From Balanoglossus misakiensis (taxonomy: Eukaryota; Animalia; Hemichordata): DNA of 64,000 bases. The position numbers and the translations under genes are program-made. The number at the start of each line of letters is the position of its first letter. The first letter of the stretch is position 1. The DNA is taken from NCBI GenBank assembly GCA_040954595.2, contig CM082582.2, positions 1,054,001-1,118,000 on the forward strand, in the 5' to 3' direction. The notes beneath the pieces were generated by a model, which made no database searches, was not told the origin of the DNA, and was given only the letters and a program-made list of their open reading frames with translations. Below, in pieces: positions 15,538 to 57,214 of the stretch.

Positions 15538-18183
15538 TTATCATATGCTCATGCTGATATCACCTCCTCCTAGTGACGTTTAACGTGAATATCACCACGT
15601 TTAGTGTGAAATATCACCGGTGATATTTCACACTAAACGTCATCATTTCTTGCGCTTATACCCGGAACTATGTTCATGAAAATGGCGACCTTAAAATGTA
15701 AACAAACATAACCCGATACAGGGCCCGGTTTCATGAGATTTGACATACCGGTAGTCAACATCGAAATTCATGGGGTTCTGATGGCCACGGACATGTCTTA
15801 TAAATAAAGGATTTATCTTGGTGATTGATTTGGAAAACAAACGATTATTAGTTACACACGTAGAAAAAATATGACAACGTCACGTCAACACTGTGCGTCA
15901 CGCGCGCGAGCAGTTGTCCAGGTGACCGGTCTGTTTACGTTCATTACGGTCGTTTACCAAATAAAGATAACCCGAAAATTTTCACAATTATACCTTCTTC
16001 AGACTTTTTTTTGTAGTTTTCAGTAAAATAAACAACTACATTTTTTATGGTTACGTTTTAAAAACAATTCAACACTAAAATGAAAACCCGGTCAATAAAA
16101 AGTGGATGCCTACGGCAAAATTTACTCACTTCCTAAATAGACATCGCAATGGAAGCATTCAATGACCCGGAGATGCAGGAAATTTTCCAACTTGCTGAGT
16201 TATTGTGTCAAGATGAAACTGATACTGCTGTACCCGAACAAAATCAGCAACAACAGCAAAATCAAAATCGGTATGTGGAATTTAATGATGGCGATTTGGA
16301 CGACTTTGTGGACCAGCAAAAAAAGAAGAATACCGTAAGGAGTACGAACACGGCAGTGAAGCAGTTTCAGGAATGGTTGTCGAGTATGCGCCCAACAGAA
16401 ACTCGTCGTATAGTTGATATGCCACCCCAAGATCTGGATAGCCACCTTGCTGCATATTTTGTTGGAGCCAGGCAGAAAAATGGTGAGCAGTATGAACCCG
16501 ATACTTTGACGAGCTATCAGCGGGGAATCGAGCGTTATCTGCAGGACAACGGTTACCCGGTCTCCATCATCCGTGACAATGAATTCCAACGCTCCCGAAA
16601 ATGCCTCTCAGCAAAAAGAGTTGAACTAAAAAAACAGGGACGGGGAAATAAGCCACAAGCTGCCGAAGTGCTTACAGATGAAGAAGAACAACTTTTAATT
16701 GAACGAGGATTTGTCGGTCGATCGACTCCCGAAGCGTTGTTCAACGCAGTTTGGATGAACAACACCAAGATGTTGGGCTTTCGCGGTGGCCAAGAAAACC
16801 GGGAATTGAAATGGGGGGATATCAAGCTCAAAAAGACGGCCGACCACAAAGAATATATCGAATTCAATGAAAGGGAGACTAAGACCAGATTTGGACAGGC
16901 TGGTGCAAAACCACGACCCTTCAACCCCAAAATCTTCGCAACTCCCGAGAAGCCAGACACATGTCCCATAGCCACATACAAGGAGTTCGCTAATCGTCGC
17001 CCCGTTGAGATGAATACCCCAGACAGCCCCTTCTACTTGGCAATCAATTATTCGCCCTCATCAACCATATGGTTTAAGAAATCCCCTATGGGAAAGAATA
17101 AGTTGGCAACAGTCATCCAAAGTATGAGCGATAAAGCAGGCATCAGAGGGAAAAAAACCAATCACAGCATGAGAAAAACAGCCATCACGAAATTGCTGCA
17201 TGCAGGCATTCCACCGACCCAAGTACAACAGTTATCGGGCCACAGTCAGCTGCAGTCGGTCAACAACTACGCCACCGCCTCGCTCAGGCAGCAGGAAGAG
17301 ATGTCAAACATCCTCGCTCCAGGTTCATCCAAACAAGTCGAAAATCGCGCAATTTCTAGTTCCGTCAGTTCAAACACGTGTCAGATGGAAGCGGCGACAA
17401 CGGGTGGTATATTTAGCGACGCAGTTATATATGGCGGCTCGTTTAATATCTATGTTTCAAACGCGACGTCGACGGGATCATCATCTATGACACAGACCCC
17501 ACCACCGTACAAACGCCGCCGCCGTGCAGTCATTTATGACTCTCCGTCCTCATCAGAAAATTCCCAGGAATGATCAGACTTTGAGACTCTTTTTGAACTT
17601 TGAAATGAATAGCCTCTGGCTTTATTTGCAATTTAACTGATTTCAAACCGATTTTAAATTCATGACGTTCACTTGTTGTTGCACCCCTAAAAAAATGTGT
17701 TCGATTCAATTTTCAAACATTTTGTTGTTTTGCATGATAGAGAGCGGTTGACCTCCTTTGACAATTTACTATTTAAAAACATCTTTGACTTACCGATGTT
17801 GTCGTTTCCTACCGTTATTTAACATCTTTACAGTTATCCTCATATTTTTATATCACCGCTACGCTACACTTAAAAATGGCGCGTCATGTCAACATGAATG
17901 AAGCCGATTTACAATGTTAATAAAATATCAATGCGCTAAGCGGAATAAAATAATTCATTAAAATTAAAGTGTTCTCGCTTTATTTTTTCATTTTTCTTGT
18001 AAATTCCGAAGTTTGAGCATATGATAAATCGGTTATCGCCCCATATCACCTCTTGTTGGGTCATATTTGCCGCTCGTGTGGGTTGTGAGCTGCATCACAC
18101 TCGTCTTCGACTCGTGTGATGCGGCTCACAACCCACACTCGCGGCAAATATGGCCCAACAAGAGGTGATATGGGGCGATAACC
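15538..18183 (+). mobile_element. CryptonA-type tyrosine-recombinase DNA transposon, apparently full length, inserted about 10 bp into an intron
   Basis: Single intact YR ORF; 14-bp inverted repeat TTATCATATGCTCA (15538-15551) / TGAGCATATGATAA (18014-18027); 44-bp palindrome at 15597-15640; 153-nt terminal hairpin at 18031-18183; GC content higher than the flanking intron. Confidence 0.88.
16149..17573 (+). CDS. Crypton tyrosine recombinase (DUF3504 family, related to ZMYM/KCTD1/QRICH1/KIAA1958 domesticates), 474 aa
   Basis: ARQKNGEQYEPDTL...GIERYL; catalytic set R (GFRGGQE), K (ETKT), HxxR (TNHSMRKT), H (SGH), Y (SVNNY) all present; C-terminal KRRRR is a likely NLS; AATAAA near 17919 and 17944. 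Confidence 0.92.
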   Translation: MEAFNDPEMQEIFQLAELLCQDETDTAVPEQNQQQQQNQNRYVEFNDGDLDDFVDQQKKKNTVRSTNTAVKQFQEWLSSMRPTETRRIVDMPPQDLDSHLAAYFVGARQKNGEQYEPDTLTSYQRGIERYLQDNGYPVSIIRDNEFQRSRKCLSAKRVELKKQGRGNKPQAAEVLTDEEEQLLIERGFVGRSTPEALFNAVWMNNTKMLGFRGGQENRELKWGDIKLKKTADHKEYIEFNERETKTRFGQAGAKPRPFNPKIFATPEKPDTCPIATYKEFANRRPVEMNTPDSPFYLAINYSPSSTIWFKKSPMGKNKLATVIQSMSDKAGIRGKKTNHSMRKTAITKLLHAGIPPTQVQQLSGHSQLQSVNNYATASLRQQEEMSNILAPGSSKQVENRAISSSVSSNTCQMEAATTGGIFSDAVIYGGSFNIYVSNATSTGSSSMTQTPPPYKRRRRAVIYDSPSSSENSQE

Positions 18184-18519
18184 TCATATTATTCATTACT
18201 ATCAAACAATTTTATGCATAATCTGACGAGGAGAAATTGGGTCATATTCACAGAGTTGATTAATCCTAAATCCTTACTTTAACACAGCTCTCCTTGTAAT
18301 GTTGTGTCTGTCCAGGGAAAACTGTGTGAAATTTTGAGTAGTTTTTCCTGTGTACATTCACCAGCCCCTAGCTGCTGTGTGTTGTACTCCAATCACACAG
18401 CCTGCAATCTCCCTACTTTAGGAAGTATAGGGAATCATCATCTGCCCATGCCTGTATCGCTCACTCTTTTTGTTTCTACCGTACATGTATTTAACACTGA
18501 ATGTAATGATACTATTCAC

Positions 18520-29625: not shown

Positions 29626-30090
29626 TAGTACTCGCACAAGGGGGCTGCAAACATGAAAGTTATAAATGGCGGAGTTCCTGCATTTTCCCCCAATAAACAT
29701 TAATTGATGAACAGTCTTTGTGCTTGTTTATTTTTCTGTGTTACCTCCACCTGTCTTAGCAGTTGCTAATCCAGAATACAAACTATTGCATTTCCCATTA
29801 AGCACCTGCTAACGACTTAATCTGTGTGCCCCATCCACGGATTTAGTGGATTAAGTAAACATCGGTCAGTTCTCACTTGGTAAGAGAATACCCAGTACTC
29901 GCTGACCGATGTTTACTTTATTAACTTAATCCGTGGATGGGGCACACAGATTAAGTCGTTAGCAGGTGATTAATGGGAAATGGATAGCTTTTATTCTGGA
30001 TTAGCAAATGATAAGACAGGTTGGGAAAACGCAGAATGGAACGTACTTCGCCATTTATAACTTTCATGTTTGCAGCCCCCTGTGGTACTA
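29626..30090. mobile_element. Long palindromic (foldback) MITE
   Basis: GGGGGCTGCAAACATGAAAGTTATAAATGGCG and CACCTGCTAACGACTTAATCTGTGTGCCCCATCCACGGATT occur as inverted arms around about 29885. Confidence 0.8.
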
Positions 30091-33590: not shown

Positions 33591-33895
33591 CTTGTATTAC
33601 CGCTGGTTTCTCATGATTGTTCATGCATCGGGGAATCTGTAGCGATGAGGTAACGGGCTCTGACGAGAACCGTGATCCACAGAGAAACGTATCTGATTTA
33701 CGTTCATTTATTGTCCGGAATTATTATAGTACATCAAATACGCCCAGTAAAGTACATGAGGAAGGGAACGAGCTCAGTAGCCTGAGGTACTCCCATCTCC
33801 CGTTAGATTATTCTCCCCTAACTTTGGAAACAAAGTTCTCTTATAATTACTTTTCTCAAGGCGTGGTTAACCATGTAAAATATCACAAATACATG

Positions 33896-36800
33896 TAGTG
33901 GCCAGTGTCGTGCCCATTAATTTTGAGTGTTTGGTGGGGTCAACCTTTGCGTCAACATTGATTAACCAGGCCATGCAGAGCTAGTGGCCAGTGTCGTGCC
34001 CATTAATTTTGAGTGTTTGGTGGGGTCAACCTTTGCGTCAACATTGATTAACCAGGCCATGCAGAGCTAGTGGCCAGTGTTGTGCCCATTAATTTTGAGT
34101 GTTTGGTGGGGTCAACCTTTGCGTCAACATTGATTAACCAGGCCATGCAGAGCTAGTGGCCAGTGTCGTGCCCATCAATTTTGAGTGTTTGGTGGGGTCA
34201 ACCTTTGCGTCAACATTGATAAACCAGGCCATGCAGAGCTAGTGGCCAGTGTCGTGCCCATTAATTTTGAGTGTTTGGTGGGGTCAACCTTTGCGTCAAC
34301 ATTGATTAACCAGGCCAGAGCTTAGTGGCCAGTGTCGTGCCCATAAATTTTGAGTGTTTGGTGGGGTCAACCCTTGCGTCAACCTTGATTAGCCAGGCCA
34401 CAGCTAGTGGCCAGTGTCGTGCCCATCAATTATGAGTGTTTGGTGGGGTCAACCCCTGCGTCAACATTGATTAGCCAGGCCAGAGCTTAGTGGCCAGTGT
34501 CGCGCCCATTAATTTTGAGTGTTTGGTGGGGTTAACCCTTGCGTCAACCTGGATTAGCCAGGCCAGAGCTTAGTGGCCAGTGTCGTGCCCATTAATTTTG
34601 AGTGTTTGGTGGGGTCAACCTTTGCGTCAACATTGATTAACCAGGCCATGCAGAGCTAGTGGCCAGTGTCGTGCCCATCAATTTTGAGTGTTTGGTGGGG
34701 TCAACCTTTGCGTCAACATTGATAAACCAGGCCATGCAGAGCTAGTGGCCAGTGTCGTGCCCATCAATTTTGAGTGTTTGGTGGGGTCAACCTTTGCGTC
34801 AACATTGATAAACCAGGCCATGCAGAGCTAGTGGCCAGTGTCGTGCCCATTAATTTTGAGTGTTTGGTGGGGTCAACCTTTGCGTCAACATTGATTAACC
34901 AGGCCATGCAGAGCTAGTGGCCAGTGTCGTGCCCATTAATTTTGAGTGTTTGGTGGGGTCAACCTTTGCGTCAACATTGATTAACCAGGCCATGCAGAGC
35001 TAGTGGCCAGTGTCGTGCTCATCAATTTTGAGTGTTTGGTGGGGTCAACCTTTGCGTCAACATTGATAAACCAGGCCATGCAGAGCTAGTGGCCAGTGTC
35101 GTGCCCATTAATTTTGAGTGTTTGGTGGGGTCAACCTTTGCGTCAACATTGATTAACCAGGCCAGAGCTTAGTGGCCAGTGTCGTGCCCATTAATTTTGA
35201 GTGTTTGGTGGGGTCAACCTTTGCGTCAACATTGATTAACCAGGCCAGAGCTTAGTGGCCAGTGTCGTGCCCATTAATTTTGAGTGTTTGGTGGGGTCAA
35301 CCTTTGCGTCAACATTGATTAACCAGGCCAGAGCTTAGTGGCCAGTGTCGTGCCCATAAATTTTGAGTGTTTGGTGGGGTCAACCCTTGCGTCAACCTTG
35401 ATTAGCCAGGCCAGAGCTAGTGGCCAGTGTCGTGCCCATCAATTGTGAGTGTTTGGTGGGGTCAACCCCTGCGTCAACATTGATTAGCCAGGCCAGAGCT
35501 TAGTGGCCAGTGTCGCGCCCATTAATTTTGAGTGTTTGGTGGGGTTAACCCTTGCGTCAGCCTGGATTAGCCAGGCCAGAGCTAGGGGCCAGTGTCGCGC
35601 CCATCAATTTTGAGTGTTTGGTGGGGTCAACCTTTGCGTCAACCTTGATTAGCCACGCCAGAGCTAGTGGCCAGTGTCGTGCCCATCAATTTTGAGTGTT
35701 TGGTGGGGTCAACCCTTGCGTCAACATTGATTAGCCAGGCCAGAGCTAGTGGCCAGTGTCGCGCCCATTAATTTTGAGTGTTTGGTGGGGTCAACCCTTG
35801 CGTCAACATTGATTAGACAGGCCAGAGCTAGTGGCCAGTGTCGCGCCCATCAATTTTGAGTGTTTGGTGGGGTCAACCCTTGCGTCAACATTGATTAGCC
35901 ACGCCAGAGCTAGTGGCGAGTGTCGCGCCCATCAATTTTGAGTGTTTGGTGGGGTCAACCCTTGCGTCAACCTTGATTAGCCAGGCCAGAGCTAGTGGCC
36001 AGTGTCGTGCCCTTCAATTATGAGTGTTTGGTGGGGTCAACCTTTGCGTCAACATTGATTAATCAGGCCATGCAGAGCTAGTGGCCAGTGTCGTGCCCAT
36101 CAATTTTGAGTGTTTGGTGGGGTCAACCTTTGCGTCAACATTGATTAACCAGGCCATGCAGAGCTAGTGGCCAGTGTCGTGCCCATTAATTTTGAGTGTT
36201 TGGTGGGGTCAACCTTTGCGTCAACATTGATTAACCAGGCCATGCAGAGCTAGTGGCCAGTGTTGTGCCCATTAATTTTGAGTGTTTGGTGGGGTCAACC
36301 TTTGCGTCAACATTGATTAACCAGGCCATGCAGAGCTAGTGGCCAGTGTCGTGCCCATCAATTTTGAGTGTTTGGTGGGGTGAACCTTTGCGTCAACATT
36401 GATAAACCAGGCCATGCAGAGCTAGTGGCCAGTGTCGTGCCCATTAATTTTGAGTGTTTGGTGGGGTCAACCTTTGCGTCAACATTGATTAACCAGGCCA
36501 GAGCTTAGTGGCCAGTGTCGTGCCCATAAATTTTGAGTGTTTGGTGGGGTCAACCCTTGCGTCAACCTTGATTAGCCAGGCCAGAGCTAGTGGCCAGTGT
36601 CGTGCCCATCAATTATGAGTGTTTGGTGGGGTCAACCCCTGCGTCAACATTGATTAGCCAGGCCAGAGCTTAGTGGCCAGTGTCGCGCCCATTAATTTTG
36701 AGTGTTTGGTGGGGTTAACCCTTGCGTCAACCTGGATTAGCCAGGCCAGAGCTTAGTGGCCAGTGTCGTGCCCATTAATTTTGAGTGTTTGGTGGGGTCA

Positions 36801-39800
36801 ACCTTTGCGTCAACATTGATTAACTAGGCCATGCAGAGCTAGTGGCCAGTGTCGTGCCCATCAATTTTGAGTGTTTGGTGGGGTCAACCTTTGCGTCAAC
36901 ATTGATAAACCAGGCCATGCAGAGCTAGTGGCCAGTGTCGTGCCCATTAATTTTGAGTGTTTGGTGGGGTCAACCTTTGCGTCAACATTGATTAACCAGG
37001 CCATGCAGAGCTAGTGGCCAGTGTCGTGCCCATCAATTTTGAGTGTTTGGTGGGGTCAACCTTTGCGTCAACATTGATAAACCAGGCCATGCAGAGCTAG
37101 TGGCCAGTGTCGTGCCCATTAATTTTGAGTGTTTGGTGGGGTCAACCTTTGCGTCAACATTGATTAACCAGGCCATGCAGAGCTAGTGGCCAGTGTCGTG
37201 CCCATCAATTTTGCGTGTTTGGTGGGGTCAACGTTTGCGTCAACATTGATAAACCAGGCCATGCAGAGCTAGTGGCCAGTGTCGTGCCCATTAATTTTGA
37301 GTGTTTGGTGGGGTCAACCCCTGCGTCAACATTGATTAGCCAGGCCAGAGCTTAGTGGCCAGTGTCGCGCCCATTAATTTTGAGTGTTTGGTGGGGTTAA
37401 CCCTTGCGTCAACCTGGATTAGCCAGGCCAGAGCTAGGGGCTAGTGTCGCGCCCATCAATTTTGAGTGTTTGGTGGGGTCAACCTTTGCGTCAACCTTGA
37501 TTAGCCACGCCAGAGCTAGTGGCCAGTGTCGTGCCCATCAATTTTGAGTGTTTGGTGGGGTCAACCCTTGCGTCAACATTGATTAGCCAGGCCAGAGCTA
37601 GTGGCCAGTGTCGTGCCCATTAATTTTGAGTGTTTGGTGGGGTCAACCCTTGCGTCAACATTGATTAGCCAGGCCAAAGCTAGTGGCCAGTGTCGCGCCC
37701 ATCAATTTTGAGTGTTTGGTGGGGTCAACCCTTGCGTCAACATTGATTAGCCAGGCCAGAGCTAGTGGCGAGTGTCGCGCCCATCAATTTTGAGTGTTTG
37801 GTGGGGTCAACCTTTGCGTCAACATTGATTAACCAGGCCATGCAGAGCTAGTGGCCAGTGTCGTGCCCATTAATTTTGAGTGTTTGGTGGGGTCAACCTT
37901 TGCGTCAACATTGATTAACCAGGCCATGCAGAGCTAGTGGCCAGTGTTGTGCCCATTAATTTTGAGTGTTTGGTGGGGTCAACCTTTGCGTCAACATTGA
38001 TTAACCAGGCCATGCAGAGCTAGTGGCCAGTGTCGTGCCCATCAATTTTGAGTGTTTGGTGGGGTCAACCTTTGCGTCAACATTGATAAACCAGGCCATG
38101 CAGAGCTAGTGGCCAGTGTCGTGCCCATTAATTTTGAGTGTTTGGTGGGGTCAACCTTTGCGTCAACATTGATTAACCAGGCCAGAGCTTAGTGGCCAGT
38201 GTCGTGCCCATAAATTTTGAGTGTTTGGTGGGGTCAACCCTTGCGTCAACCTTGATTAGCCAGGCCAGAGCTTAGTGGCCAGTGTCGTGCCCATCAATTT
38301 TGAGTGTTTGGTGGGGTCAACCTTTGCGTCAACATTGATTAACCAGGCCATGCAGAGCTAGTGGCCAGTGTCGTGCCCATCAATTTTGAGTGTTTGGTGG
38401 GGTCAACCTTTGCGTCAACATTGATAAACCAGGCCATGCAGAGCTAGTGGCCAGTGTCGTGCCCATTAATTTTGAGTGTTTGGTGGGGTCAACCTTTGCG
38501 TCAACATTGATTAACCAGGCCATGCAGAGCTAGTGGCCAGTGTCGTGCCCATTAATTTTGAGTGTTTGGTGGGGTCAACCTTTGCGTCAACATTGATAAA
38601 CCAGGCCATGCAGAGCTAGTGGCCAGTGTCGTGCCCATTAATTTTGAGTGTTTGGTGGGGTCAACCTTTGCGTCAACATTGATTAACCAGGCCATGCAGA
38701 GCTAGTGGCCAGTGTCGTGCCCATTAATTTTGAGTGTTTGGTGGGGTCAACCTTTGCGTCAACATTGATTAACCAGGCCATGCAGAGCTAGTGGCCAGTG
38801 TCGTGCTCATCAATTTTGAGTGTTTGGTGGGGTCAACCTTTGCGTCAACATTGATAAACCAGGCCATGCAGAGCTAGTGGCCAGTGTCGTGCCCATTAAT
38901 TTTGAGTGTTTGGTGGGGTCAACCTTTGCGTCAACATTGATTAACCAGGCCAGAGCTTAGTGGCCAGTGTCGTGCCCATTAATTTTGAGTGTTTGGTGGG
39001 GTCAACCTTTGCGTCAACATTGATTAACCAGGCCAGAGCTTAGTGGCCAGTGTCGTGCCCATTAATTTTGAGTGTTTGGTGGGGTCAACCTTTGCGTCAA
39101 CATTGATTAACCAGGCCAGAGCTTAGTGGCCAGTGTCGTGCCCATAAATTTTGAGTGTTTGGTGGGGTCAACCCTTGCGTCAACCTTGATTAGCCAGGCC
39201 AGAGCTAGTGGCCAGTGTCGTGCCCATCAATTGTGAGTGTTTGGTGGGGTCAACCCCTGCGTCAACATTGATTAGCCAGGCCAGAGCTTAGTGGCCAGTG
39301 TCGCGCCCATTAATTTTGAGTGTTTGGTGGGGTTAACCCTTGCGTCAGCCTGGATTAGCCAGGCCAGAGCTAGGGGCCAGTGTCGCGCCCATCAATTTTG
39401 AGTGTTTGGTGGGGTCAACCTTTGCGTCAACCTTGATTAGCCACGCCAGAGCTAGTGGCCAGTGTCGTGCCCATCAATTTTGAGTGTTTGGTGTGGTCAA
39501 CCCTTGCGTCAACATTGATTAGCCAGGCCAGAGCTAGTGGCCAGTGTCGCGCCCATTAATTTTGAGTGTTTGGTGGGGTCAACCCTTGCGTCAACATTGA
39601 TTAGACAGGCCAGAGCTAGTGGCCAGTGTCGCGCCCATCAATTTTGAGTGTTTGGTGGGGTCAACCCTTGCGTCAACATTGATTAGCCACGCCAGAGCTA
39701 GTGGCGAGTGTCGCACCCATCAATTTTGAGTGTTTGGTTGGGTCAACCCTTGCGTCAACCTTGATTAGCCAGGCCAGAGCTAGTGGCCAGTGTCGTGCCC

Positions 39801-42800
39801 TTCAATTTTGAGTGTTTGGTGGGGTCAACCTTTGCGTCAACATTGATTAACCAGGCCAGAGCTTAGTGGCCAGTGTCGTGCCCATAAATTTTGAGTGTTT
39901 GGTGGGGTCAACCCTTGCGTCAACCTTGATTAGCCAGGCCAGAGCTTAGTGGCCAGTGTCGTGCCCATCAATTTTGAGTGTTTGGTGGGGTCAACCTTTG
40001 CGTCAACATTGATTAACCAGGCCATGCAGAGCTAGTGGCCAGTGTCGTGCCCATCAATTTTGAGTGTTTGGTGGGGTCAACCTTTGCGTCAACATTGATA
40101 AACCAGGCCATGCAGAGCTAGTGGCCAGTGTCGTGCCCATTAATTTTGAGTGTTTGGTGGGGTCAACCTTTGCGTCAACATTGATTAACCAGGCCATGCA
40201 GAGCTAGTGGCCAGTGTCGTGCCCATTAATTTTGAGTGTTTGGTGGGGTCAACCTTTGCGTCAACATTGATAAACCAGGCCATGCAGAGCTAGTGGCCAG
40301 TGTCGTGCCCATTAATTTTGAGTGTTTGGTGGGGTCAACCTTTGCGTCAACATTGATTAACCAGGCCATGCAGAGCTAGTGGCCAGTGTCGTGCCCATTA
40401 ATTTTGAGTGTTTGGTGGGGTCAACCTTTGCGTCAACATTGATTAACCAGGCCATGCAGAGCTAGTGGCCAGTGTCGTGCTCATCAATTTTGAGTGTTTG
40501 GTGGGGTCAACCTTTGCGTCAACATTGATAAACCAGGCCATGCAGAGCTAGTGGCCAGTGTCGTGCCCATTAATTTTGAGTGTTTGGTGGGGTCAACCTT
40601 TGCGTCAACATTGATTAACCAGGCCAGAGCTTAGTGGCCAGTGTCGTGCCCATTAATTTTGAGTGTTTGGTGGGGTCAACCTTTGCGTCAACATTGATTA
40701 ACCAGGCCAGAGCTTAGTGGCCAGTGTCGTGCCCATTAATTTTGAGTGTTTGGTGGGGTCAACCTTTGCGTCAACATTGATTAACCAGGCCAGAGCTTAG
40801 TGGCCAGTGTCGTGCCCATAAATTTTGAGTGTTTGGTGGGGTCAACCCTTGCGTCAACCTTGATTAGCCAGGCCAGAGCTAGTGGCCAGTGTCGTGCCCA
40901 TCAATTGTGAGTGTTTGGTGGGGTCAACCCCTGCGTCAACATTGATTAGCCAGGCCAGAGCTTAGTGGCCAGTGTCGCGCCCATTAATTTTGAGTGTTTG
41001 GTGGGGTTAACCCTTGCGTCAGCCTGGATTAGCCAGGCCAGAGCTAGGGGCCAGTGTCGCGCCCATCAATTTTGAGTGTTTGGTGGGGTCAACCTTTGCG
41101 TCAACCTTGATTAGCCACGCCAGAGCTAGTGGCCAGTGTCGTGCCCATCAATTTTGAGTGTTTGGTGTGGTCAACCCTTGCGTCAACATTGATTAGCCAG
41201 GCCAGAGCTAGTGGCCAGTGTCGCGCCCATTAATTTTGAGTGTTTGGTGGGGTCAACCCTTGCGTCAACATTGATTAGACAGGCCAGAGCTAGTGGCCAG
41301 TGTCGCGCCCATCAATTTTGAGTGTTTGGTGGGGTCAACCCTTGCGTCAACATTGATTAGCCACGCCAGAGCTAGTGGCGAGTGTCGCACCCATCAATTT
41401 TGAGTGTTTGGTTGGGTCAACCCTTGCGTCAACCTTGATTAGCCAGGCCAGAGCTAGTGGCCAGTGTCGTGCCCTTCAATTATGAGTGTTTGGTGGGGTC
41501 AACCTTTGCGTCAACATTGATTAATCAGGCCATGCAGAGCTAGTGGCCAGTGTCGTGCCCATCAATTTTGAGTGTTTGGTGGGGTCAACCTTTGCGTCAA
41601 CATTGATTAACCAGGCCATGCAGAGCTAGTGGCCAGTGTCGTGCCCATTAATTTTGAGTGTTTGGTGGGGTCAACCTTTGCGTCAACATTGATTAACCAG
41701 GCCATGCAGAGCTAGTGGCCAGTGTTGTGCCCATTAATTTTGAGTGTTTGGTGGGGTCAACCTTTGCGTCAACATTGATTAACCAGGCCATGCAGACCTA
41801 GTGGCCAGTGTCGTGCCCATCAATTTTGAGTGTTTGGTGGGGTGAACCTTTGCGTCAACATTGATAAACCAGGCCATGCAGAGCTAGTGGCCAGTGTCGT
41901 GCCCATTAATTTTGAGTGTTTGGTGGGGTCAACCTTTGCGTCAACATTGATTAACCAGGCCAGAGCTTAGTGGCCAGTGTCGTGCCCATAAATTTTGAGT
42001 GTTTGGTGGGGTCAACCCTTGCGTCAACCTTGATTAGCCAGGCCAGAGCTAGTGGCCAGTGTCGTGCCCATCAATTATGAGTGTTTGGTGGGGTCAACCC
42101 CTGCGTCAACATTGATTAGCCAGGCCAGAGCTTAGTGGCCAGTGTCGCGCCCATTAATTTTGAGTGTTTGGTGGGGTTAACCCTTGCGTCAACCTGGATT
42201 AGCCAGGCCAGAGCTTAGTGGCCAGTGTCGTGCCCATTAATTTTGAGTGTTTGGTGGGGTCAACCTTTGCGTCAACATTGATTAACTAGGCCATGCAGAG
42301 CTAGTGGCCAGTGTCGTGCCCATCAATTTTGAGTGTTTGGTGGGGTCAACCTTTGCGTCAACATTGATAAACCAGGCCATGCAGAGCTAGTGGCCAGTGT
42401 CGTGCCCATTAATTTTGAGTGTTTGGTGGGGTCAACCTTTGCGTCAACATTGATTAACCAGGCCATGCAGAGCTAGTGGCCAGTGTCGTGCCCATCAATT
42501 TTGAGTGTTTGGTGGGGTCAACCTTTGCGTCAACATTGATAAACCAGGCCATGCAGAGCTAGTGGCCAGTGTCGTGCCCATTAATTTTGAGTGTTTGGTG
42601 GGGTCAACCTTTGCGTCAACATTGATTAACCAGGCCATGCAGAGCTAGTGGCCAGTGTCGTGCCCATTAATTTTGAGTGTTTGGTGGGGTCAACCTTTGC
42701 GTCAACATTGATTAACCAGGCCATGCAGAGCTAGTGGCCAGTGTCGTGCCCATCAATTTTGAGTGTTTGGTGGGGTCAACCTTTGCGTCAACATTGATAA

Positions 42801-45800
42801 ACCAGGCCATGCAGAGCTAGTGGCCAGTGTCGTGCCCATTAATTTTGAGTGTTTGGTGGGGTCAACCCCTGCGTCAACATTGATTAGCCAGGCCAGAGCT
42901 TAGTGGCCAGTGTCGCGCCCATTAATTTTGAGTGTTTGGTGGGGTTAACCCTTGCGTCAACCTGGATTAGCCAGGCCAGAGCTAGGGGCTAGTGTCGCGC
43001 CCATCAATTTTGAGTGTTTGGTGGGGTCAACCTTTGCGTCAACCTTGATTAGCCACGCCAGAGCTAGTGGCCAGTGTCGTGCCCATCAATTTTGAGTGTT
43101 TGGTGGGGTCAACCCTTGCGTCAACATTGATTAGCCAGGCCAGAGCTAGTGGCCAGTGTCGTGCCCATTAATTTTGAGTGTTTGGTGGGGTCAACCCTTG
43201 CGTCAACATTGATTAGCCAGGCCAAAGCTAGTGGCCAGTGTCGCGCCCATCAATTTTGAGTGTTTGGTGGGGTCAACCCTTGCGTCAACATTGATTAGCC
43301 AGGCCAGAGCTAGTGGCGAGTGTCGCGCCCATCAATTTTGAGTGTTTGGTGGGGTCAACCTTTGCGTCAACATTGATTAACCAGGCCATGCAGAGCTAGT
43401 GGCCAGTGTCGTGCCCATTAATTTTGAGTGTTTGGTGGGGTCAACCTTTGCGTCAACATTGATTAACCAGGCCATGCAGAGCTAGTGGCCAGTGTTGTGC
43501 CCATTAATTTTGAGTGTTTGGTGGGGTCAACCTTTGCGTCAACATTGATTAACCAGGCCATGCAGAGCTAGTGGCCAGTGTCGTGCCCATCAATTTTGAG
43601 TGTTTGGTGGGGTCAACCTTTGCGTCAACATTGATAAACCAGGCCATGCAGAGCTAGTGGCCAGTGTCGTGCCCATTAATTTTGAGTGTTTGGTGGGGTC
43701 AACCTTTGCGTCAACATTGATTAACCAGGCCAGAGCTTAGTGGCCAGTGTCGTGCCCATAAATTTTGAGTGTTTGGTGGGGTCAACCCTTGCGTCAACCT
43801 TGATTAGCCAGGCCAGAGCTTAGTGGCCAGTGTCGTGCCCATCAATTTTGAGTGTTTGGTGGGGTCAACCTTTGCGTCAACATTGATTAACCAGGCCATG
43901 CAGAGCTAGTGGCCAGTGTCGTGCCCATCAATTTTGAGTGTTTGGTGGGGTCAACCTTTGCGTCAACATTGATTAACCAGGCCATGCAGAGCTAGTGGCC
44001 AGTGTCGTGCCCATTAATTTTGAGTGTTTGGTGGGGTCAACCTTTGCGTCAACATTGATAAACCAGGCCATGCAGAGCTAGTGGCCAGTGTCGTGCCCAT
44101 TAATTTTGAGTGTTTGGTGGGGTCAACCCCTGCGTCAACATTGATTAGCCAGGCCAGAGCTTAGTGGCCAGTGTCGCGCCCATTAATTTTGAGTGTTTGG
44201 TGGGGTTAACCCTTGCGTCAACCTGGATTAGCCAGGCCAGAGCTAGGGGCCAGTGTCGCGCCCATCAATTTTAAGTGTTTGGTGGGGTCAACCTTTGCGT
44301 CAACCTTGATTAGCCACGCCAGAGCTAGTGGCCAGTGTCGTGCCCATCAATTTTGAGTGATTGGTGGGGTCAACCCTTGCGTCAACATTGATTAGCCAGG
44401 CCAGAGCTAGTGGCCAGTGTCGTGCCCATTAATTTTGAGTGTTTGGTGGGGTCAACCCTTGCGTCAACATTGATTAGCCAGGCCAGAGCTAGTGGCCAGT
44501 GTCGCGCCCATCAATTTTGAGTGTTTGGTGGGGTCAACCCTTGCGTCAACATTGATTAGCCAGGCCAGAGCTAGTGGCGAGTGTCGCGCCCATCAATTTT
44601 GAGTGTTTGGTGGGGTCAACCTTTGCGTCAACATTGATTAACCAGGCCATGCAGAGCCAGTGGCCAGTGTCGTGCCCATCAATTTTGAGTGTTTGGTGGG
44701 GTCAACCTTTGCGTCAACATTGATTAACCAGGCCATGCAGAGCTAGTGGCCAGTGTCGTGCCCATCAATTTTGAGTGTTTGGTAGGGTCAACCTTTGCGT
44801 CAACATTGATTAACCAGGCCATGCAGAGCTAGTGGCCAGTGTCGTGCCCATCAATTTTGAGTGTTTGGTGGGGTCAACCTTTGCGTCAACATTGATTAAC
44901 CAGGCCATGCAGAGCTAGTGGCCAGTGTCGTGCCCATCAATTATGAGTGTTTGGTGGGGTCAACCCTTGCGTCAACCTTGATTAGCCAGGCCAGAGCTTA
45001 GTGGCCAGTGTCGTGCCCATCAATTTTGAGTGTTTGGTGGGGTCAACCCTTGCGTCAACCTTGATTAGCCAGGCCAGAGCTAGTGGCCAGTGTCGTGCCC
45101 ATCAATTATGAGTGTTTGGCGGGGTCAACCCTTGCGTCAACATTGATTAGCCAGGCCAGAGCTAGTGGCCAGTGTCGCGCCCATTAATTTTGAGTGTTTG
45201 GTGGGGTCAACCTTTGCGTCAACCTTGATTAGCCAGGCCATGCAGAGCTAGGGGCCAGTGTCGTGCCCATCAATTTTGAGTGTTTGGTGGGGTCAACCTT
45301 TGCGTCAACCTTGATTAGCCAGGCCATGCAGAGCTAGTGGCCAGTGTCGTGCCCATTAATTTTGAGTGTTTGGTGGGGTTAACCCTTGCGTCAACCTGGA
45401 TTAGCCAGGCCAGAGCTTAGTGGCCAGTGTCGTGCCCATCAATTTTGAGTGTTTGGTGGGGTCAACCTTTGCGTCAACATTGATAAACCAGGCCATGCAG
45501 AGCTAGTGGCCAGTGTCGTGCCCATTAATTTTGAGTGTTTGGTGGGGTCAACCTTTGCGTCAACATTGATTAACCAGGCCATGCAGAGCTAGTGGCCAGT
45601 GTCGTGCCCATCAATTTTGAGTGTTTGGTGGGGTCAACCTTTGCGTCAACATTGATAAACCAGGCCATGCAGAGCTAGTGGCCAGTGTCGTGCCCATCAA
45701 TTATGAGTGTTTGGTGGGGTCAACCCCTGCGTCAACATTGATTAGCCAGGCCAGAGCTTAGTGGCCAGTGTCGCGCCCATTAATTTTGAGTGTTTGGTGG

Positions 45801-48800
45801 GGTTAACCCTTGCGTCAACCTGGATTAGCCAGGCCAGAGCTTAGTGGCCAGTGTCGTGCCCATTAATTTTGAGTGTTTGGTGGGGTCAACCTTTGCGTCA
45901 ACATTGATTAACTAGGCCATGCAGAGCTAGTGGCCAGTGTCGTGCCCATCAATTTTGAGTGTTTGGTGGGGTCAACCTTTGCGTCAACATTGATAAACCA
46001 GGCCATGCAGAGCTAGTGGCCAGTGTCGTGCCCATTAATTTTGAGTGTTTGGTGGGGTCAACCTTTGCGTCAACATTGATTAACCAGGCCATGCAGAGCT
46101 AGTGGCCAGTGTCGTGCCCATCAATTTTGAGTGTTTGGTGGGGTCAACCTTTGCGTCAACATTGATAAACCAGGCCATGCAGAGCTAGTGGCCAGTGTCG
46201 TGCCCATTAATTTTGAGTGTTTGGTGGGGTCAACCTTTGCGTCAACATTGATTAACCAGGCCATGCAGAGCTAGTGGCCAGTGTCGTGCCCATTAATTTT
46301 GAGTGTTTGGTGGGGTCAACCTTTGCGTCAACATTGATTAACCAGGCCATGCAGAGCTAGTGGCCAGTGTCGTGCCCATCAATTTTGAGTGTTTGGTGGG
46401 GTCAACCTTTGCGTCAACATTGATAAACCAGGCCATGCAGAGCTAGTGGCCAGTGTCGTGCCCATTAATTTTGAGTGTTTGGTGGGGTCAACCCCTGCGT
46501 CAACATTGATTAGCCAGGCCAGAGCTTAGTGGCCAGTGTCGCGCCCATTAATTTTGAGTGTTTGGTGGGGTTAACCCTTGCGTCAACCTGGATTAGCCAG
46601 GCCAGAGCTAGTGGCCAGTGTCATGCCCATCAATTTTGAGTGATTGGTGGGGTCAACCTTTGCGTCAACCTTGATTAGCCACGCCAGAGCTAGTGGCCAG
46701 TGTCGTGCCCATCAATTTTGAGTGATTGGTGGGGTCAACCCTTGCGTCAACATTGATTAGCCAGGCCAGAGCTAGTGGCCAGTGTCGTGCCCATTAATTT
46801 TGAGTGTTTGGTGGGGTCAACCCTTGCGTCAACATTGATTAGCCAGGCCAGAGCTAGTGGCCAGTGTCGCGCCCATCAATTTTGAGTGTTTGGTGGGGTC
46901 AACCCTTGCGTCAACATTGATTAGCCAGGCCAGAGCTAGTGGCGAGTGTCGCGCCCATCAATTTTGAGTGTTTGGTGGGGTCAACCTTTGCGTCAACATT
47001 GATTAACCAGGCCATGCAGAGCCAGTGGCCAGTGTCGTGCCCATCAATTTTGAGTGTTTGGTGGGGTCAACCTTTGCGTCAACATTGATTAACCAGGCCA
47101 TGCAGAGCTAGTGGCCAGTGTCGTGCCCATCAATTTTGAGTGTTTGGTAGGGTCAACCTTTGCGTCAACATTGATTAACCAGGCCATGCAGAGCTAGTGG
47201 CCAGTGTCGTGCCCATCAATTTTGAGTGTTTGGTGGGGTCAACCTTTGCGTCAACATTGATTAACCAGGCCATGCAGAGCTAGTGGCCAGTGTCGTGCCC
47301 ATCAATTATGAGTGTTTGGTGGGGTCAACCCTTGCGTCAACCTTGATTAGCCAGGCCAGAGCTTAGTGGCCAGTGTCGTGCCCATCAATTTTGAGTGTTT
47401 GGTGGGGTCAACCCTTGCGTCAACCTTGATTAGCCAGGCCAGAGCTAGTGGCCAGTGTCGTGCCCATCAATTATGAGTGTTTGGCGGGGTCAACCCTTGC
47501 GTCAACATTGATTAGCCAGGCCAGAGCTAGTGGCCAGTGTCGCGCCCATTAATTTTGAGTGTTTGGTGGGGTCAACCTTTGCGTCAACCTTGATTAGCCA
47601 GGCCATGCAGAGCTAGGGGCCAGTGTCGTGCCCATCAATTTTGAGTGTTTGGTGGGGTCAACCTTTGCGTCAACCTTGATTAGCCAGGCCATGCAGAGCT
47701 AGTGGCCAGTGTCGTGCCCATTAATTTTGAGTGTTTGGTGGGGTTAACCCTTGCGTCAACCTGGATTAGCCAGGCCAGAGCTTAGTGGCCAGTGTCGTGC
47801 CCATCAATTTTGAGTGTTTGGTGGGGTCAACCTTTGCGTCAACATTGATTAACCAGGCCATGCAGAGCTAGTGGCCAGTGTCGTGCCCATTAATTTTGAG
47901 TGTTTGGTGGGGTCAACCTTTGCGTCAACATTGATTAACCAGGCCATGCAGAGCTAGTGGCCAGTGTCGTGCCCATTAATTTTGAGTGTTTGGTGGGGTC
48001 AACCTTTGCGTCAACATTGATTAACCAGGCCATGCAGAGCTAGTGGCCAGTGTCGTGCCCATCAATTTTGAGTGTTTGGTGGGGTCAACCTTTGCGTCAA
48101 CATTGATTAACCAGGCCATGCAGAGCTAGTGGCCAGTGTCGTGCCCATCAATTTTGAGTGTTTGGTGGGGTCAACCTTTGCGTCAACATTGATTAACCAG
48201 GCCATCAGAGCTAGTGGCCAGTGTCGTGCCCATCAATTTTGAGTGTTTGGTGGGGTCAACCTTTGCGTCAACATTGATTAACCAGGCCATGCAGAACTAG
48301 TGGCCAGTGTCGTGCCCATCAATTTTGAGTGTTTGGTGGGGTCAACCTTTGCGTCAACATTGATTAACCAGGCCATGCAGAGCTAGTGGCCAGTGTCGTG
48401 CCCATCAATTTTGAGTGTTTGGTGGGGTCAACCTTTGCGTCAACATTGATTAACCAGGCCATGCAGAGCTAGTGGCCAGTGTCGTGCCCATCAATTTTGA
48501 GTGTTTGGTGGGGTCAACCTTTGCGTCAACATTGATTAGCCAGGCCATGCAGAGCTAGTGGCCAGTGTCGCGCCCATTAATTTTGAGTGTTTGGTGGGGT
48601 CAACCTTTGCGTCAACCTTGATTAGCCAGGCCATGCAGAGCTAGGGGCCAGTGTCGTGCCCATCAATTTTGAGTGTTTGGTGGGGTCAACCTTTGCGTCA
48701 ACCTTGATTAGCCAGGCCATGCAGAGCTAGTGGCCAGTGTCGTGCCCATCAATTTTGAGTGTTTGGTGGGGTCAACCTTTGCGTCAACATTGATTAACCA

Positions 48801-50103
48801 GGCCATGCAGAGCTAGTGGCCAGTGTCGTGCCCATTAATTTTGAGTGTTTGGTGGGGTCAACCTTTGCGTCAACATTGATTAACCAGGCCATGCAGAGCT
48901 AGTGGCCAGTGTCGTGCCCATCAATTTTGAGTGTTTGGTGGGGTCAACCTTTGCGTCAACATTGATTAACCAGGCCATGCAGAGCTAGTGGCCAGTGTCG
49001 TGCCCATCAATTTTGAGTGTTTGGTGGGGTCAACCTTTGCGTCAACATTGATTAACCAGGCCATGCAGAGCTAGTGGCCAGTGTCGTGCCCATCAATTTT
49101 GAGTGTTTGGTGGGGTCAACCTTTGCGTCAACATTGATTAACCAGGCCATGCAGAGCTAGGGGCCAGTGTCGCGCCCATTAATTTTGAGTGTTTGGTGGG
49201 GTCAACCTTTGCGTCAACCTTGATTAGCCAGGCCATGCAGAGCTAGGGGCCAGTGTCGTGCCCATCAATTTTGAGTGTTTGGTGGGGTCAACCTTTGCGT
49301 CAACCTTGATTAGCCAGGCCATGCAGAGCTAGTGGCCAGTGTCGTGCCCATCAATTTTGAGTGTTTGGTGGGGTCAACCTTTGCGTCAACATTGATTAAC
49401 CAGGCCATGCAGAGCTAGTGGCCAGTGTCGTGCCCATTAATTTTGAGTGTTTGGTGGGGTCAACCTTTGCGTCAACATTGATTAACCAGGCCATGCAGAG
49501 CTAGTGGCCAGTGTCGTGCCCATCAATTTTGAGTGTTTGGTGGGGTCAACCTTTGCGTCAACATTGATTAACCAGGCCATGCAGAGCTAGTGGCCAGTGT
49601 CGTGCCCATCAATTTTGGGTGTTTGGTGGGGTCAACCTTTGCGTCAACATTGATTAACCAGGCCATGCAGAGCTAGTGGCCAGTGTCGTGCCCATCAATT
49701 TTGAGTGTTTGGTGGGGTCAACCTTTGCGTCAACATTGATTAACCAGGCCATGCAGAGCTAGTGGCCAGTGTCGTGCCCATCAATTTTGAGTGTTTGGTG
49801 GGGTCAACCTTTGCGTCAACATTGATTAACCAGGCCATGCAGAGCTAGTGGCCAGTGTCGTGCCCATCAATTTTGAGTGTTTGGTGGGGTCAACCTTTGC
49901 GTCAACATTGATTAACCAGGCCATGCAGAGCTAGTGGCCAGTGTCGTGCCCATCAATTTTGAGTGTTTGGTGGGGTCAACCTTTGCGTCAACATTGATTA
50001 ACCAGGCCATGCAGAGCTAGTGGCCAGTGTCGTGCCCATTAATTTTGAGTGTTTGGTAGGGTCAACCTTTGCGTCAACATTGATTAACCAGCCCATGCAG
50101 AGC
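33896..50103. repeat. 86-bp satellite array (82/83-bp variants), about 190 units, with higher-order structure
   Basis: Unit TAGTGGCCAGTGTCGTGCCCATTAATTTTGAGTGTTTGGTGGGGTCAACCTTTGCGTCAACATTGATTAACCAGGCCATGCAGAGC repeated head to tail with no spacers. Confidence 0.99.
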
Positions 50104-51777: not shown

Positions 51778-52519
51778 GGTAACCACTTAGCTTTCGTGAC
51801 TGGTTGTTTAAGAATCCAAAAAACATGAATTCTACCCAATGAATTCAACCCTTAGAATTTCACAACTGTAACAGAGTTTGCAGTCATGCACAAAAGTGTG
51901 TATCATACACATAAGAAATTTCTCACATGTATTTTTATGATGGCAATGCATTCGACTGTAAACAAACATTGACATCAGTCAGTAGCGCTATTTTGTCAGT
52001 GAAATGGCTTCATCATCATCCCTCCAACCAAAGTTGAAACTGAGTTGCAAATATTGCACAGCTTGAAATCATAAAATGTTGCAAAATTGAACCAACAGTT
52101 CGGTCAATGATCAAGTTCTTACAGCTATTATTAGAACCAGACAATCTCAGCGAACAAGAGACATGGGCCTTATTTGCAAGTCGAGTTAGAACTGCCTTTG
52201 CCTGCCCACGGACGCCCCAGTTTCAGCAAAAATTATTGCATTAAAATGTGAGTATGGAGAACTATGCTCTGTGTTCCTTTTGTTAGCTTACATAGCTGTT
52301 GTCATTCTAGTTTTTCCTCTGTCCTGTGAACAGAGTTTCAGTTGCGAAAACCGACAGTTCTCAAAGTACAAAAGTACACCTAAATTGCCTCGGTGATGAG
52401 CATGCAGAATTTATCTGATGCTTTTTACTGGCAGAAGGACCCCACCAGTTGCAGATTGTCAATTCCATGGCACAAGGGAATTTACGCTTTGCGTTCAAAT
52501 ATAAATAATTAAAACCTGT
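51778..52519. repeat. About 740-bp segment duplicated in inverted orientation at 60808-61546
   Basis: For example CAAAAGTACACCTAAATTGCCTCGGTGATGAGCATGCAG near 52370 is the reverse complement of sequence near 60920-60960. Confidence 0.88.
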
Positions 52520-53844
52520 TTAATTTTTCTATATGTTCTTTAGTGATGATTCAAAAGTATTATGACTGCTAGTGTGATTAATATTCTATTTTCAAAATGT
52601 GTTTCTCTTAATGATTATGAATACATCAAAATTTATGCTTTAAAATTAAATCATTATACCTGAAATATTGCAAATATTTGGAGGGTTGCATTTAATTTGA
52701 AGTTCTCGATCAAAGTTTTAGGCATAAAAAAGGTGCTACACCCCCGAAAAATTGGTAGCTATGAATTCAATTCAAAGAGTGTTGTAATGTCTGTTTTGCA
52801 ACAGGGTGCCAGTTCAACAAAGCGCATGAGGATAGTAAATCACCTTTGTGAATTTTGTGCACCACAGTAAGAATTCCCTAGAAACTGCAAACTAAATTGC
52901 AAAGCAATCAGACAAAAATGGCAGAAATTGCCAAAAAAAAAAAAACAATATTGTCACTTCCATCACTGGGTTTGTTAAATTGTCATAAAATCACACCTAA
53001 GAACATGCAAACCAAATTTTAAAAAAAATGTGGGTAGAGGTTTCTGAGTATATGACGACCAAAATCACCCCAAAAATATACTTTAAAAATGAAAAATAAA
53101 ATCTGTATAAAGTCTCAATAACATAAATACACACCAATTTCTAAAGCAATCTGACCAGTACCTTCTTGAGTTTCTGAGTTTAGAACAATATCACATTGGT
53201 CCCAATGGTATATTGACATATACAAAATTGGACCTAAAGAGTAAAACACATTTCAAAGATTTTACAATTAAAGCCTCACAAGCTGCCAAATTTTACACAT
53301 CTTTTTCCACAATAACATTTTTCAAATCATCCACCTATCCTTTAAAATCAGCACCATTGAGCCATATTACTTGAATTTGCATGGGGTTTGTCATCTCTCT
53401 GCGATGTGTACCCTCCATATGGAGGCTGATTAAAACAGGTGTGGCGCTCGTTTAATATCTGACTTCTTTAAATTGCAACATACAGGCACATTCATTAGTC
53501 AATAAAATGTTCATGTATACCTATCAGTCAGTTTGTTTAGATGAACAAATCTAAGATGGAAAGTAATATCATGAAAATACTGAAAGATTGGAAACTCTGA
53601 GTTTGAGTCTAAGGATAACAAGGGAACCTCTCTACTATTTGACGCACCAAAGCTATGAAAAACTTCCTTCTTTCCCTCAAATATTTTTTATGAATATGTT
53701 CTACTCCGTGATTAAAATTTCCCTTTTACCAAATGTACATATGTAAGAGACGAGATTTTTTCAGCAAAATTTCAAATGGCCTAGGGTGACTTTTTACCTA
53801 CTTACCCATATTGGGTAGCATGAAACACAGAATGGCATACCAGT

Positions 53845-55026: not shown

Positions 55027-55414
55027 TACAGGTAAGCCTAGAATTAGGTACATGTACATGCGTAAGTTTTTGACAAGACAGTTAAGCTGTAATATATGTA
55101 CATGAACCTTGACAATTGACTTAAAATAACATAAAGGCAGAACTGATACTGATTGGAGATAGATATTACTAATGACAGTGATGTTAATTACACCAGGAAT
55201 GTTTGTCTTAGTATACGGTAGCTAACCGACTGCTTGAGGTTAAGTAATAAAAGTGCCCACTTGCGATTCACCTTCAAATAGCTACTTAGTCTTTGGTACA
55301 TGTACATTGTTTTTCCAATGATTAGACAAAGGATATACATACGTGTAATTAAGAGTGTAAAATATAAAATATGCTCGACCGTAGTTCCTGTCTTCTGAAT
55401 GATCTTTATTTAAA

Positions 55415-55454
55415 ACCAACGTTTCGGCAGTACACAGACTGCCTTCTTCAGGGT
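55415..55454 (-). ncRNA. Second hammerhead copy in the inverted pseudo-LTR
   Basis: Reverse complement of 57175-57214. Confidence 0.78.
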
Positions 55455-55994
55455 ATACTAATGGAAACAAATAAAACACGATAGGAATCGGTTAAAATAG
55501 GTATGTGGTAAAAAGCAGTAAGTTTCAGAAAATTAACAAAATTGGCATTACAATAAAAGGCGTCTCTGTGTGACTAGAGGTTAAAAAATGAATGGTAATG
55601 ACACAAGTTGTACATTTCATGGGAATAAAATCACTATATATGTGTAGAATGAAGAGAGAAACCAACCTTGATACGAAGTTGCAGCGTATCGAGAAGTACA
55701 GTGATGGTGTTGGAAACTGACTCCCTAGTGTGGGGCAGAAAGATCAAATGTAGACCCCCCAGGTGAGATGAGAATAGAGGAACATGGTATGGAGGCATCA
55801 TCCCTCCTTACGGTTGATACCATTTGGCGATAGGGTACCAAACTCAGTAATGAAGAAGAGTTCTTTTTGACGTCGGGTTTGTGTGTTGGGGCTGAACATT
55901 TTGCAGAGGCCACTGGCATGAAAGTGACTGAGGTTGTGACCAGGTTGGTTAAAATGTTCTGAGACAGGGGTGGGTTTGTTATTTTTGATGGTGT

Positions 55995-56831: not shown

Positions 56832-57174
56832 TGCCTCCATACCATGTTCCTCTATTCTCATCTCACCTGGGGGGTCTACATTTGATCTTTCTGCCCCACA
56901 CTAGGGAGTCAGTTTCCAACACCATCACTGTACTTCTCGATACGCTGCAACTTCGTATCAAGGTTGGTTTCTCTCTTCATTCTACACATATATAGTGATT
57001 TTATTCCCATGAAATGTACAACTTGTGTCATTACCATTCATTTTTTAACCTCTAGTCACACAGAGACGCCTTTTATTGTAATGCCAATTTTGTTAATTTT
57101 CTGAAACTTACTGCTTTTTACCACATACCTATTTTAACCGATTCCTATCGTGTTTTATTTGTTTCCATTAGTAT

Positions 57175-57214
57175 ACCCTGAAGAAGGCAGTCTGTGTACT
57201 GCCGAAACGTTGGT
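57175..57214 (+). ncRNA. Minimal type I hammerhead ribozyme in the Penelope pseudo-LTR
   Basis: ACC CTGAAGA A GGCAGT CTGTGT ACTGCC GAAAC GTT GGT: CUGANGA and GAAA core, 6-bp stem II, palindromic stem III, 3-bp stem I. Confidence 0.8.

Follow-up and report, generated by a model that had tools for sequence, protein, structure and literature searches.

Animal Crypton transposons have been described as lacking terminal repeats: Kojima and Jurka (2011) reported none, the CryptonA rows of their supplement 1 read 'n.d.', and in the available text of that description we found no mention of a palindrome or stem (PMC3212892). Glomhoppers are likewise reported without repeats (PMC13465315), and a curation guide, in its accessible sections, gives Cryptons only a short direct repeat (PMC8969392). 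According to a 2026 review, the transposition mechanism of Cryptons has not been shown by experiment, and a double-stranded circle is assumed (PMC13565253). Active Cryptons of Chlamydomonas gain copies as well as excise (PMC9977147), and the human repeats Eulor5 and Eulor6 are classed as Cryptons, with hairpins and palindromes unmentioned in the available text (PMC5753468). In CTX phage, two inverted dif-like sites with unequal spacers form a forked 150-bp hairpin that undergoes a single strand exchange (PMC3089051). By NMR, two CGAG segments paired with each other have been shown to hold two sheared G.A pairs flanked by C-G pairs, in a pyrimidine-GA-purine context, and the GNA triloop is termed a thermodynamically stable DNA loop in the same report (PMC10085684). 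We analyzed a 64,000-nt stretch of the Balanoglossus misakiensis genome (Hemichordata; GCA_040954595.2, contig CM082582.2, positions 1,054,001 to 1,118,000 of the forward strand; hereafter the window) that carries an autonomous, intact CryptonA copy ending in a long hairpin. An empty allele of the same locus fixes both ends of the element.

The element covers 2,651 bp (15538..18188, forward strand), as delimited by the empty-site joint and the host exons. In runs X1, X3 and X4, which come from two samples and two studies, contigs connect 15537 directly with 18189, which sets the element at 15538-18188 and shows that other alleles lack it. The joint shares four letters, and the target TTAT (18189..18192, forward strand) occurs once in the empty allele, which leaves a 4-nt TTAT ambiguity at the ends. 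The insertion is recent and lies at TTAT, ten bases inside an intron of a host gene with a pentraxin/LamG domain. The last 7 nt (18182..18188, forward strand) are an element-encoded tail that remains at the hairpin end, both in the empty-site joint and in other copies. Other copies in run X1 leave the host flank at 18188 (at least three contigs) or 18192 (at least six), and those in run X2 at 18192 (at least four) or 18193 (at least three). These departure points (18188, 18192-18194) are the best-supported ones, alongside 57 further loose-end entries; joints with an unknown intervening part, possibly internally deleted derivatives or cross-mapping of the arms, were excluded. The family is multicopy, its right end lies at 18188, and TTAT is mostly the landing site, common to most other copies among the matches listed. 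The element has no reverse transcriptase, no classical terminal inverted repeats and no target site duplication, and its mobility is evident from the empty allele in three runs of two studies and from several different right flanks. No relatives were found in a viral sequence collection. Two RNA runs, of which only ~6% and ~12% were sampled, gave no read over 17860-18300.

The only protein of the element is a tyrosine recombinase, encoded by an intronless open reading frame (16149..17573, forward strand) and recognized by profile matches, alignment and predicted fold; the other long frame is antisense and overlapping, and the element encodes no Rep, HUH or helicase gene. Three domains were detected (DUF3504, E-value 2e-22; Phage_integrase, 2e-11; QRICH1 domain, 5e-8), and the catalytic R-H-R-H-Y set is intact. 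When the query was aligned with 29 of its 40 protein matches (30 sequences in all; residues numbered after the Met), H338, R341, H364 and Y373 were invariant and R211 nearly so. Named matches included KIAA1958-like and ZMYM3-like proteins, with oysters and an acorn worm among the sources. The predicted fold was closest to QRICH1 and Cre in Foldseek, with a TM-score on the query of ~0.5 for Cre and 0.38 for the integron integrase; the sequence match to IntI4 was confined to the C-terminal catalytic stretch, and by fold IntI4 ranked below Cre. In all features tested (recombinase domains, catalytic residues, ends and mobility), the element is a CryptonA.

Downstream of the recombinase lies the long hairpin (18033..18181, bottom strand), which runs from foot b (TTAT) to foot b' (ATAA), as delimited by pairing, folding and a model of the circle junction. 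The palindrome, centred on 18107, pairs as the initial annotation had described it, with a TTC apex (18106-08), two symmetric TC/TC internal loops (18101-02/18112-13 and 18074-75/18139-40; 5-6 and 32-33 steps from the centre), two T-G pairs (18091/18123 and 18061/18153) and Watson-Crick pairs everywhere else out to 18031/18183. A third TC/TC, missed by that annotation, sits just outside the hairpin (18029-30/18184-85). On the bottom strand the same letters read as two CGAG/CGAG tandem blocks and a C-GAA-G apex. The view that such GA/GA mismatches and C-GAA-G loops are stable motifs in DNA agrees with the NMR work on CGAG blocks and GNA triloops, in its accessible part (PMC10085684). Position 18061 was C throughout the contig depth of both DNA runs (seven contigs each; the two arms can cross-map), and the T-G pair at 18061/18153 is probably a change private to this copy. 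The pair at 18091/18123, where no variant was recorded, seems to be shared across the family. A corrected pattern of the hairpin design, run on the whole window, matched this hairpin alone.

Either strand folds far better than chance (ViennaRNA, z ~ -22; none of 200 shuffles as good). The DNA model of ViennaRNA gave -87.2 kcal/mol for the top strand versus -83.6 kcal/mol for the bottom strand, placing the top strand ahead by 3.6. In this model the CTTCG and CGAAG loops are equal (3.4), GA/GA gains only 0.4 kcal per loop over TC/TC, and both parameter sets return identical values with no bonus for the triloop or for sheared pairs. Having no model of sheared pairs, the program cannot test a claim of strand preference. 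The folding bias towards the bottom strand proposed in the initial annotation is thus met from two sides: the mismatch context is consistent with it across families, whereas the ViennaRNA energies prefer the top strand.

Several other repeats occur in the window. A 194-nt near-perfect palindrome (29789-29982) with a looser outer inverted repeat lacks the TC/TC design and is probably fold-back or MITE-like. At 55352-57277, a 643-nt inverted repeat of 100% identity surrounds a GIY-YIG open reading frame (55989-56831), and the region resembles a fragment of a Penelope-type retroelement with an inverted duplication. Some 16 kb (33724-50000) consist of an 86-bp tandem repeat with 98-100% identity, whose blocks and recurring spacers form a higher-order satellite. 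Two inverted copies of a 726-nt repeat (51850-52575 and 60752-61477) are 93% complementary, and a reverse transcriptase fragment (1653-2585; RVT_1, E-value 4e-7) is likely a LINE remnant.

The two ends of the element are related by a split inverted repeat. The plain end, box a (14 nt starting with TTAT; 15538..15551, forward strand), is the exact reverse complement of the subterminal box a' (18014..18027, forward strand), which ends in ATAA. Between a' and the hairpin foot lies a 5-nt spacer (18028..18032, forward strand) that carries the third TC and completes an inner core-like site, ATAA-N5-TTAT. The layout thus runs from plain end a through the open reading frame to a', 5 nt, the hairpin from b to b', 7 nt and the end, and each box presents ATAA or TTAT toward a spacer. 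When both ends were joined by script, the stem grew by 14 bp around an asymmetric centre. The left subterminal region (15557..15640) holds repeats of ATATCACC at 15557, 15589 and 15611 and an inverted one at 15619, and it contains a perfect 44-nt palindrome (15597-15640). The same 8-mer recurs in the hairpin arms at 18043 and 18164, and we regard it as a candidate binding motif. In related families (numbered F below, with loci numbered L), shorter palindromes also occur in the plain end, 140-400 nt 5' of the open reading frame (L005, L014, L017, L028, L009, L057 and L060). Like the palindrome at 15597-15640, they contain motifs that recur in the terminal hairpin and lack the TC/TC design.

An a/a' complement of 10-24 nt was found in nine families, this element's and F1, F2, F3, F4, F5, F6, F9 and F19. 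By our own reading it was the best inverted match in 19 of the 47 loci tested; the best inverted match exceeded 30 shuffles in 12/47, one of these being unrelated to the ends. In most families a' (ATAA) faces TTAT or TTAC at the hairpin foot over 5 nt (the gap is longer in F4 and F14), and a family-specific tail of 7 nt comes after the other foot; these spacer and tail layouts were found with guided patterns and by eye. The host flank past the tail mostly begins with AT or GT in other families, not with TTAT, so that only in this element's family is the cut position fixed, and the left boundary is ambiguous in several families because the flanks are AT-rich. At one locus (L054:3471-3580), the plain end of an F3 copy adjoins the hairpin end of another Crypton-type element; this natural junction of foot, 7 nt and TTAT resembles the predicted circle junction and suggests self-targeting. 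An F4 copy (L035:2800-2815 / L036:4668-4680) ends exactly past a', without a hairpin, possibly by a cut at the inner site.

Comparison across families reveals which parts of the hairpin are kept. From the 289 relatives returned by a metagenome scan, we retained the best 80; these formed 26 nucleotide clusters besides that of the window, and 12 family representatives shared 34-57% protein identity. Among these best 80 of 289 relatives, eight other families carry a hairpin of the same design with a different stem 3' of the recombinase. In a ninth (F6) the hairpin is inverted and upstream of the open reading frame; the plain end follows downstream, and the sense strand carries GA. Polarity therefore follows the element end and not the transcript, which favours a role in DNA and argues against a 3' UTR. 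A hairpin scan blind to mismatch type returned, after removal of two pure AT-repeat hairpins (L071 and L072), 51 hairpins with 117 2x2 loops, the window's two loops included. Of the 144 possible letter combinations, just two accounted for 60 of these loops (52 TC/TC and 8 GA/GA). Within 1,200 nt 3' of the recombinase, and leaving F6 aside, 46/68 loops were TC/TC, 5 were TC/TT and 2 were GA/GA; both GA/GA loops belong to a single oppositely oriented hairpin (L009), which clusters with hairpins away from recombinase genes. On the GA strand, every one of the 60 TC/TC or GA/GA loops had a pyrimidine-GA-purine context (CGAG in 38, TGAG in 12 and CGAA in 10), as did 21/21 loops in single representatives of 10 hairpin clusters; the family counts are not independent events, because all families share ancestry. 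The flanking pairs of the loops covary, and no hairpin mixed the two polarities. A C-GNA-G apex (GAA, GCA or GTA) occurred on the GA strand of 17/28 hairpins and never on the opposite strand; the other 11 apices were deleted or decayed, three of them with A replacing the first G. Most families place an outer block 29-32 pairs away from the apex (25 pairs in F9), and the stem sequences align poorly between families.

The alignment of hairpins across families called for in the initial annotation therefore bears it out, in that the TC/TC loops and the TNC apex persist while the stems diverge. Its view that the identical mismatches are unlikely to be random decay is upheld by their uniform polarity and constant pyrimidine-GA-purine context: judged from the sequences, persistence across families excludes decay. 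In some copies the TC/TC had turned into perfect pairs or the loops were lost (L051 and L044), which suggests that the mismatches persist against a homogenising process. Not every relative carries the structure. Among loci with at least 600 nt downstream, the hairpin was present in 15/32 and missing in 17/32, and 7/14 eligible families had it. Several of the misses break off inside the element end (L008, L012, L017, L035/36 and L061/63); F10, F13, F22 and F26 had no such hairpin downstream, an absence for which we have no explanation.

The hairpin is the conserved end structure of a CryptonA transposon. We hypothesize, with slightly more confidence than doubt, that the recombinase uses its folded bottom (GA) strand. 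The ends would be brought together, in a circle or on a single strand exposed at a fork, allowing a to pair with a' and b with b'. The product would be a single dif-like ATAA-spacer-TTAT core, its 5x7 centre unpaired, carried by a rod of ~150 nt. Stabilisation of this rod by the sheared CGAG blocks and the GNA cap would be confined to the GA strand, the TC strand presenting open pyrimidine loops. A cut of the GA strand by the recombinase, immediately 3' of ATAA, would be followed by exchange of a single strand pair with a target that contains TTAT, and host replication or repair would finish the junction. Candidate sources of the single strand are lagging-strand exposure and cruciform extrusion from a circle. 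The expected outcome would be a gain of copies, little need for spacer homology and a tail always at the hairpin end.

The footprint of the insertion can be read against this scheme. Cleavage by tyrosine recombinases falls at the spacer's 5' edge. After a bottom-strand cut 3' of ATAA, the hairpin end would retain the 7-nt tail and the plain end would have the host spacer, which matches the filled and empty alleles; a top-strand cut would put the tail at the plain end, and both products would be expected from two-strand exchange between unlike spacers. The footprint thus fits a cut on the same strand as carries the GA blocks, an agreement that amounts to concordance, not proof, because the cut position is fixed in one family only. 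The initial annotation had likened the mismatches to a strand-selection code of the attC type. Their one-strand polarity stands behind the idea of a code; that the recombinase reads it is conjectural, and the likeness to attC holds in principle only. Use of the GA strand also faces contrary points, namely the top-strand preference in ViennaRNA, the T-G pair that seems fixed in the family (C.A on the bottom strand), the loci without a hairpin and the Cre-like fold.

Other explanations of the hairpin share part of this evidence. Transposition as a double-stranded circle, with ordinary or Tn916-like two-strand exchange where its ends are joined, is possible if somewhat unlikely. In that case the hairpin would be an accessory, either a cruciform extruding in the circle or a signal for loading or directionality, with mismatches that protect a long palindrome from deletion. 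This is the Crypton model in the available text of the literature (PMC3212892, PMC13565253), a circle has been shown for a Starship (bioRxiv 10.64898/2026.09.21.753150), the predicted fold is Cre-like, and the broken or deleted hairpins in many copies show that palindrome instability is real. Any mismatch would break a palindrome, however, yet 60/60 are compatible with sheared pairs on one strand, and the a/a' complement is left without a role. Two-strand exchange between unlike spacers moreover predicts a tail at either end, whereas it was observed at the hairpin end and, by eye, was absent from the left flanks of F2, F3 and F5. We consider it rather improbable that CTCG is instead a directly repeated duplex motif, read by the recombinase or a host protein, with TC/TC as a by-product of its presence in both arms. 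The predominance of the CGAG/CTCG context (38/60) could indeed stem from one ancestral motif. Such a motif does not account for flanks that change together (TGAG opposite CGAA) while pairing and the pyrimidine-GA-purine rule are kept, for an apex that changes only at its middle base in 17/28, or for an outer block that, although the stems are unrelated, most families hold at 29-32 pairs from the apex.

A further alternative accepts the folded GA strand but assigns it to replication or processing, as a hairpin primer, a nick site or a site of protelomerase-like resolution at the inner ATAA-N5-TTAT. The signal would make a single-stranded or hairpin-ended intermediate and would not itself be the substrate of strand exchange. 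The same strand-bias evidence applies here, the F4 locus (L035 = L036) ends as if the inner site had been cut, and, with no Rep or helicase in the element, the source of a single strand is otherwise unexplained. We nevertheless give this alternative little credence: the cut-like end occurs in one locus only, and a/a' rebuilds the core site exactly across the modelled circle junction, which points to recombination there. Least credible of all, in our estimation, is a role of the hairpin as RNA (a 3' UTR structure or small-RNA precursor) or an origin of the mismatches in random decay. The hairpin does lie ~460 nt past the stop codon on the sense strand and gave weak matches to microRNA-precursor models. 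These were all far under the gathering scores (best 40 bits against a threshold of 100), and the Rfam matches fell on both strands alike, as any long hairpin gives. In F6, moreover, where the hairpin lies 5' of the open reading frame, the sense strand carries the opposite letters, and the range of mismatches departs strongly from a random one.

The feature is real and belongs to a known class of transposon. In the literature searched, a body of work that did not extend to Repbase and Dfam entries, where the hairpin may already be noted, we came across no account of such an end structure; the proposed mechanism is new and testable. For such tests the copy offers exact ends, an intact single-exon enzyme, and predictions of the substrate (less than 200 nt), the strand and the cut site. 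If the folded GA strand is indeed what the recombinase uses, folded single-stranded DNA would be the substrate of a eukaryotic tyrosine recombinase, and sheared G.A pairs and GNA loops would have a natural job. Crypton derivatives without a gene could then be sought by this structural signature, and there would be a hint at the former binding target of domesticated DUF3504 proteins (ZMYM, QRICH1 and KCTD1).

In its gene content and size the element resembles CryptonA as published, with a single intronless DUF3504 tyrosine recombinase, an intact tetrad, no GCR1_C, a length of 2-3 kb, and neither a target site duplication nor a classical terminal inverted repeat (PMC3212892; Glomhoppers, PMC13465315). 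Unlike the published accounts, in whose available text terminal repeats are absent, its ends combine a strand-biased hairpin with a split inverted repeat and a dif-like inner site. An asymmetric terminal inverted repeat with a terminal hairpin is also known from Helitron2/Helentron ends (PMC8969392), and strand-specific hairpin recognition from IS200/IS605, to which single-stranded circles belong (PMC13565253). As far as the available text describes them, however, both systems use HUH nucleases and short hairpins, whereas here a tyrosine recombinase occurs without an HUH or helicase gene. Strand-biased circularizing integrative elements (SEs) share the tyrosine recombinase and circular intermediates, copy out one strand and leave a 6-bp spacer to one side; they differ in being bacterial and in needing four genes, and a long GA-block hairpin is not described in the available text (PMC9345347). 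Starships are, like the present element, eukaryotic and built around a tyrosine recombinase, and they move by a circle, but they are giant and fungal, and the accessible text mentions no hairpin (bioRxiv 10.64898/2026.09.21.753150).

Close parallels are the folded single-strand sites attC and CTX attP, with which this site shares a palindrome conserved in structure rather than in sequence. With integron attC and IntI it has in common a structure kept as sequence diverges, a strand bias set by imperfect pairing and only microhomology at the crossover; attC, by contrast, uses single extrahelical bases and an integrase-specific domain, where this element has symmetric tandem GA blocks and a GNA cap (PMC4792948, in its available part). 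The recombinase, too, is nearer to Cre than to IntI4 in predicted fold. The attP(+) site of CTX, used by XerC/XerD, also consists of two inverted core-like sites with unequal spacers and a palindromic link in a hairpin of ~150 bp; its boxes face the spacer with A-T-[A/T]-A and TTAT, and one strand exchange is proposed (PMC3089051). Two inverted boxes around an unpaired spacer were seen here in the modelled circle junction, and elsewhere by eye and with guided patterns. CTX differs in its single-stranded genome, borrowed host enzymes and fixed site, and the accessible text describes no sheared GA blocks (PMC3089051). This element, by contrast, encodes a single enzyme of its own and has dispersed targets, and in the mechanism proposed above it would gain its second site only after the ends join. 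We hypothesize, holding the arguments for and against to be evenly balanced, that animal CryptonA elements are eukaryotic counterparts of integron cassettes and CTX phage, moving as a folded single strand with a site built when the ends meet and with the strand chosen by sheared G.A pairs and a GNA cap, a code undescribed for any recombinase. With its conserved symmetric sheared blocks and split terminal repeat, the layout is closer to CTX attP than to the extrahelical bases of attC.
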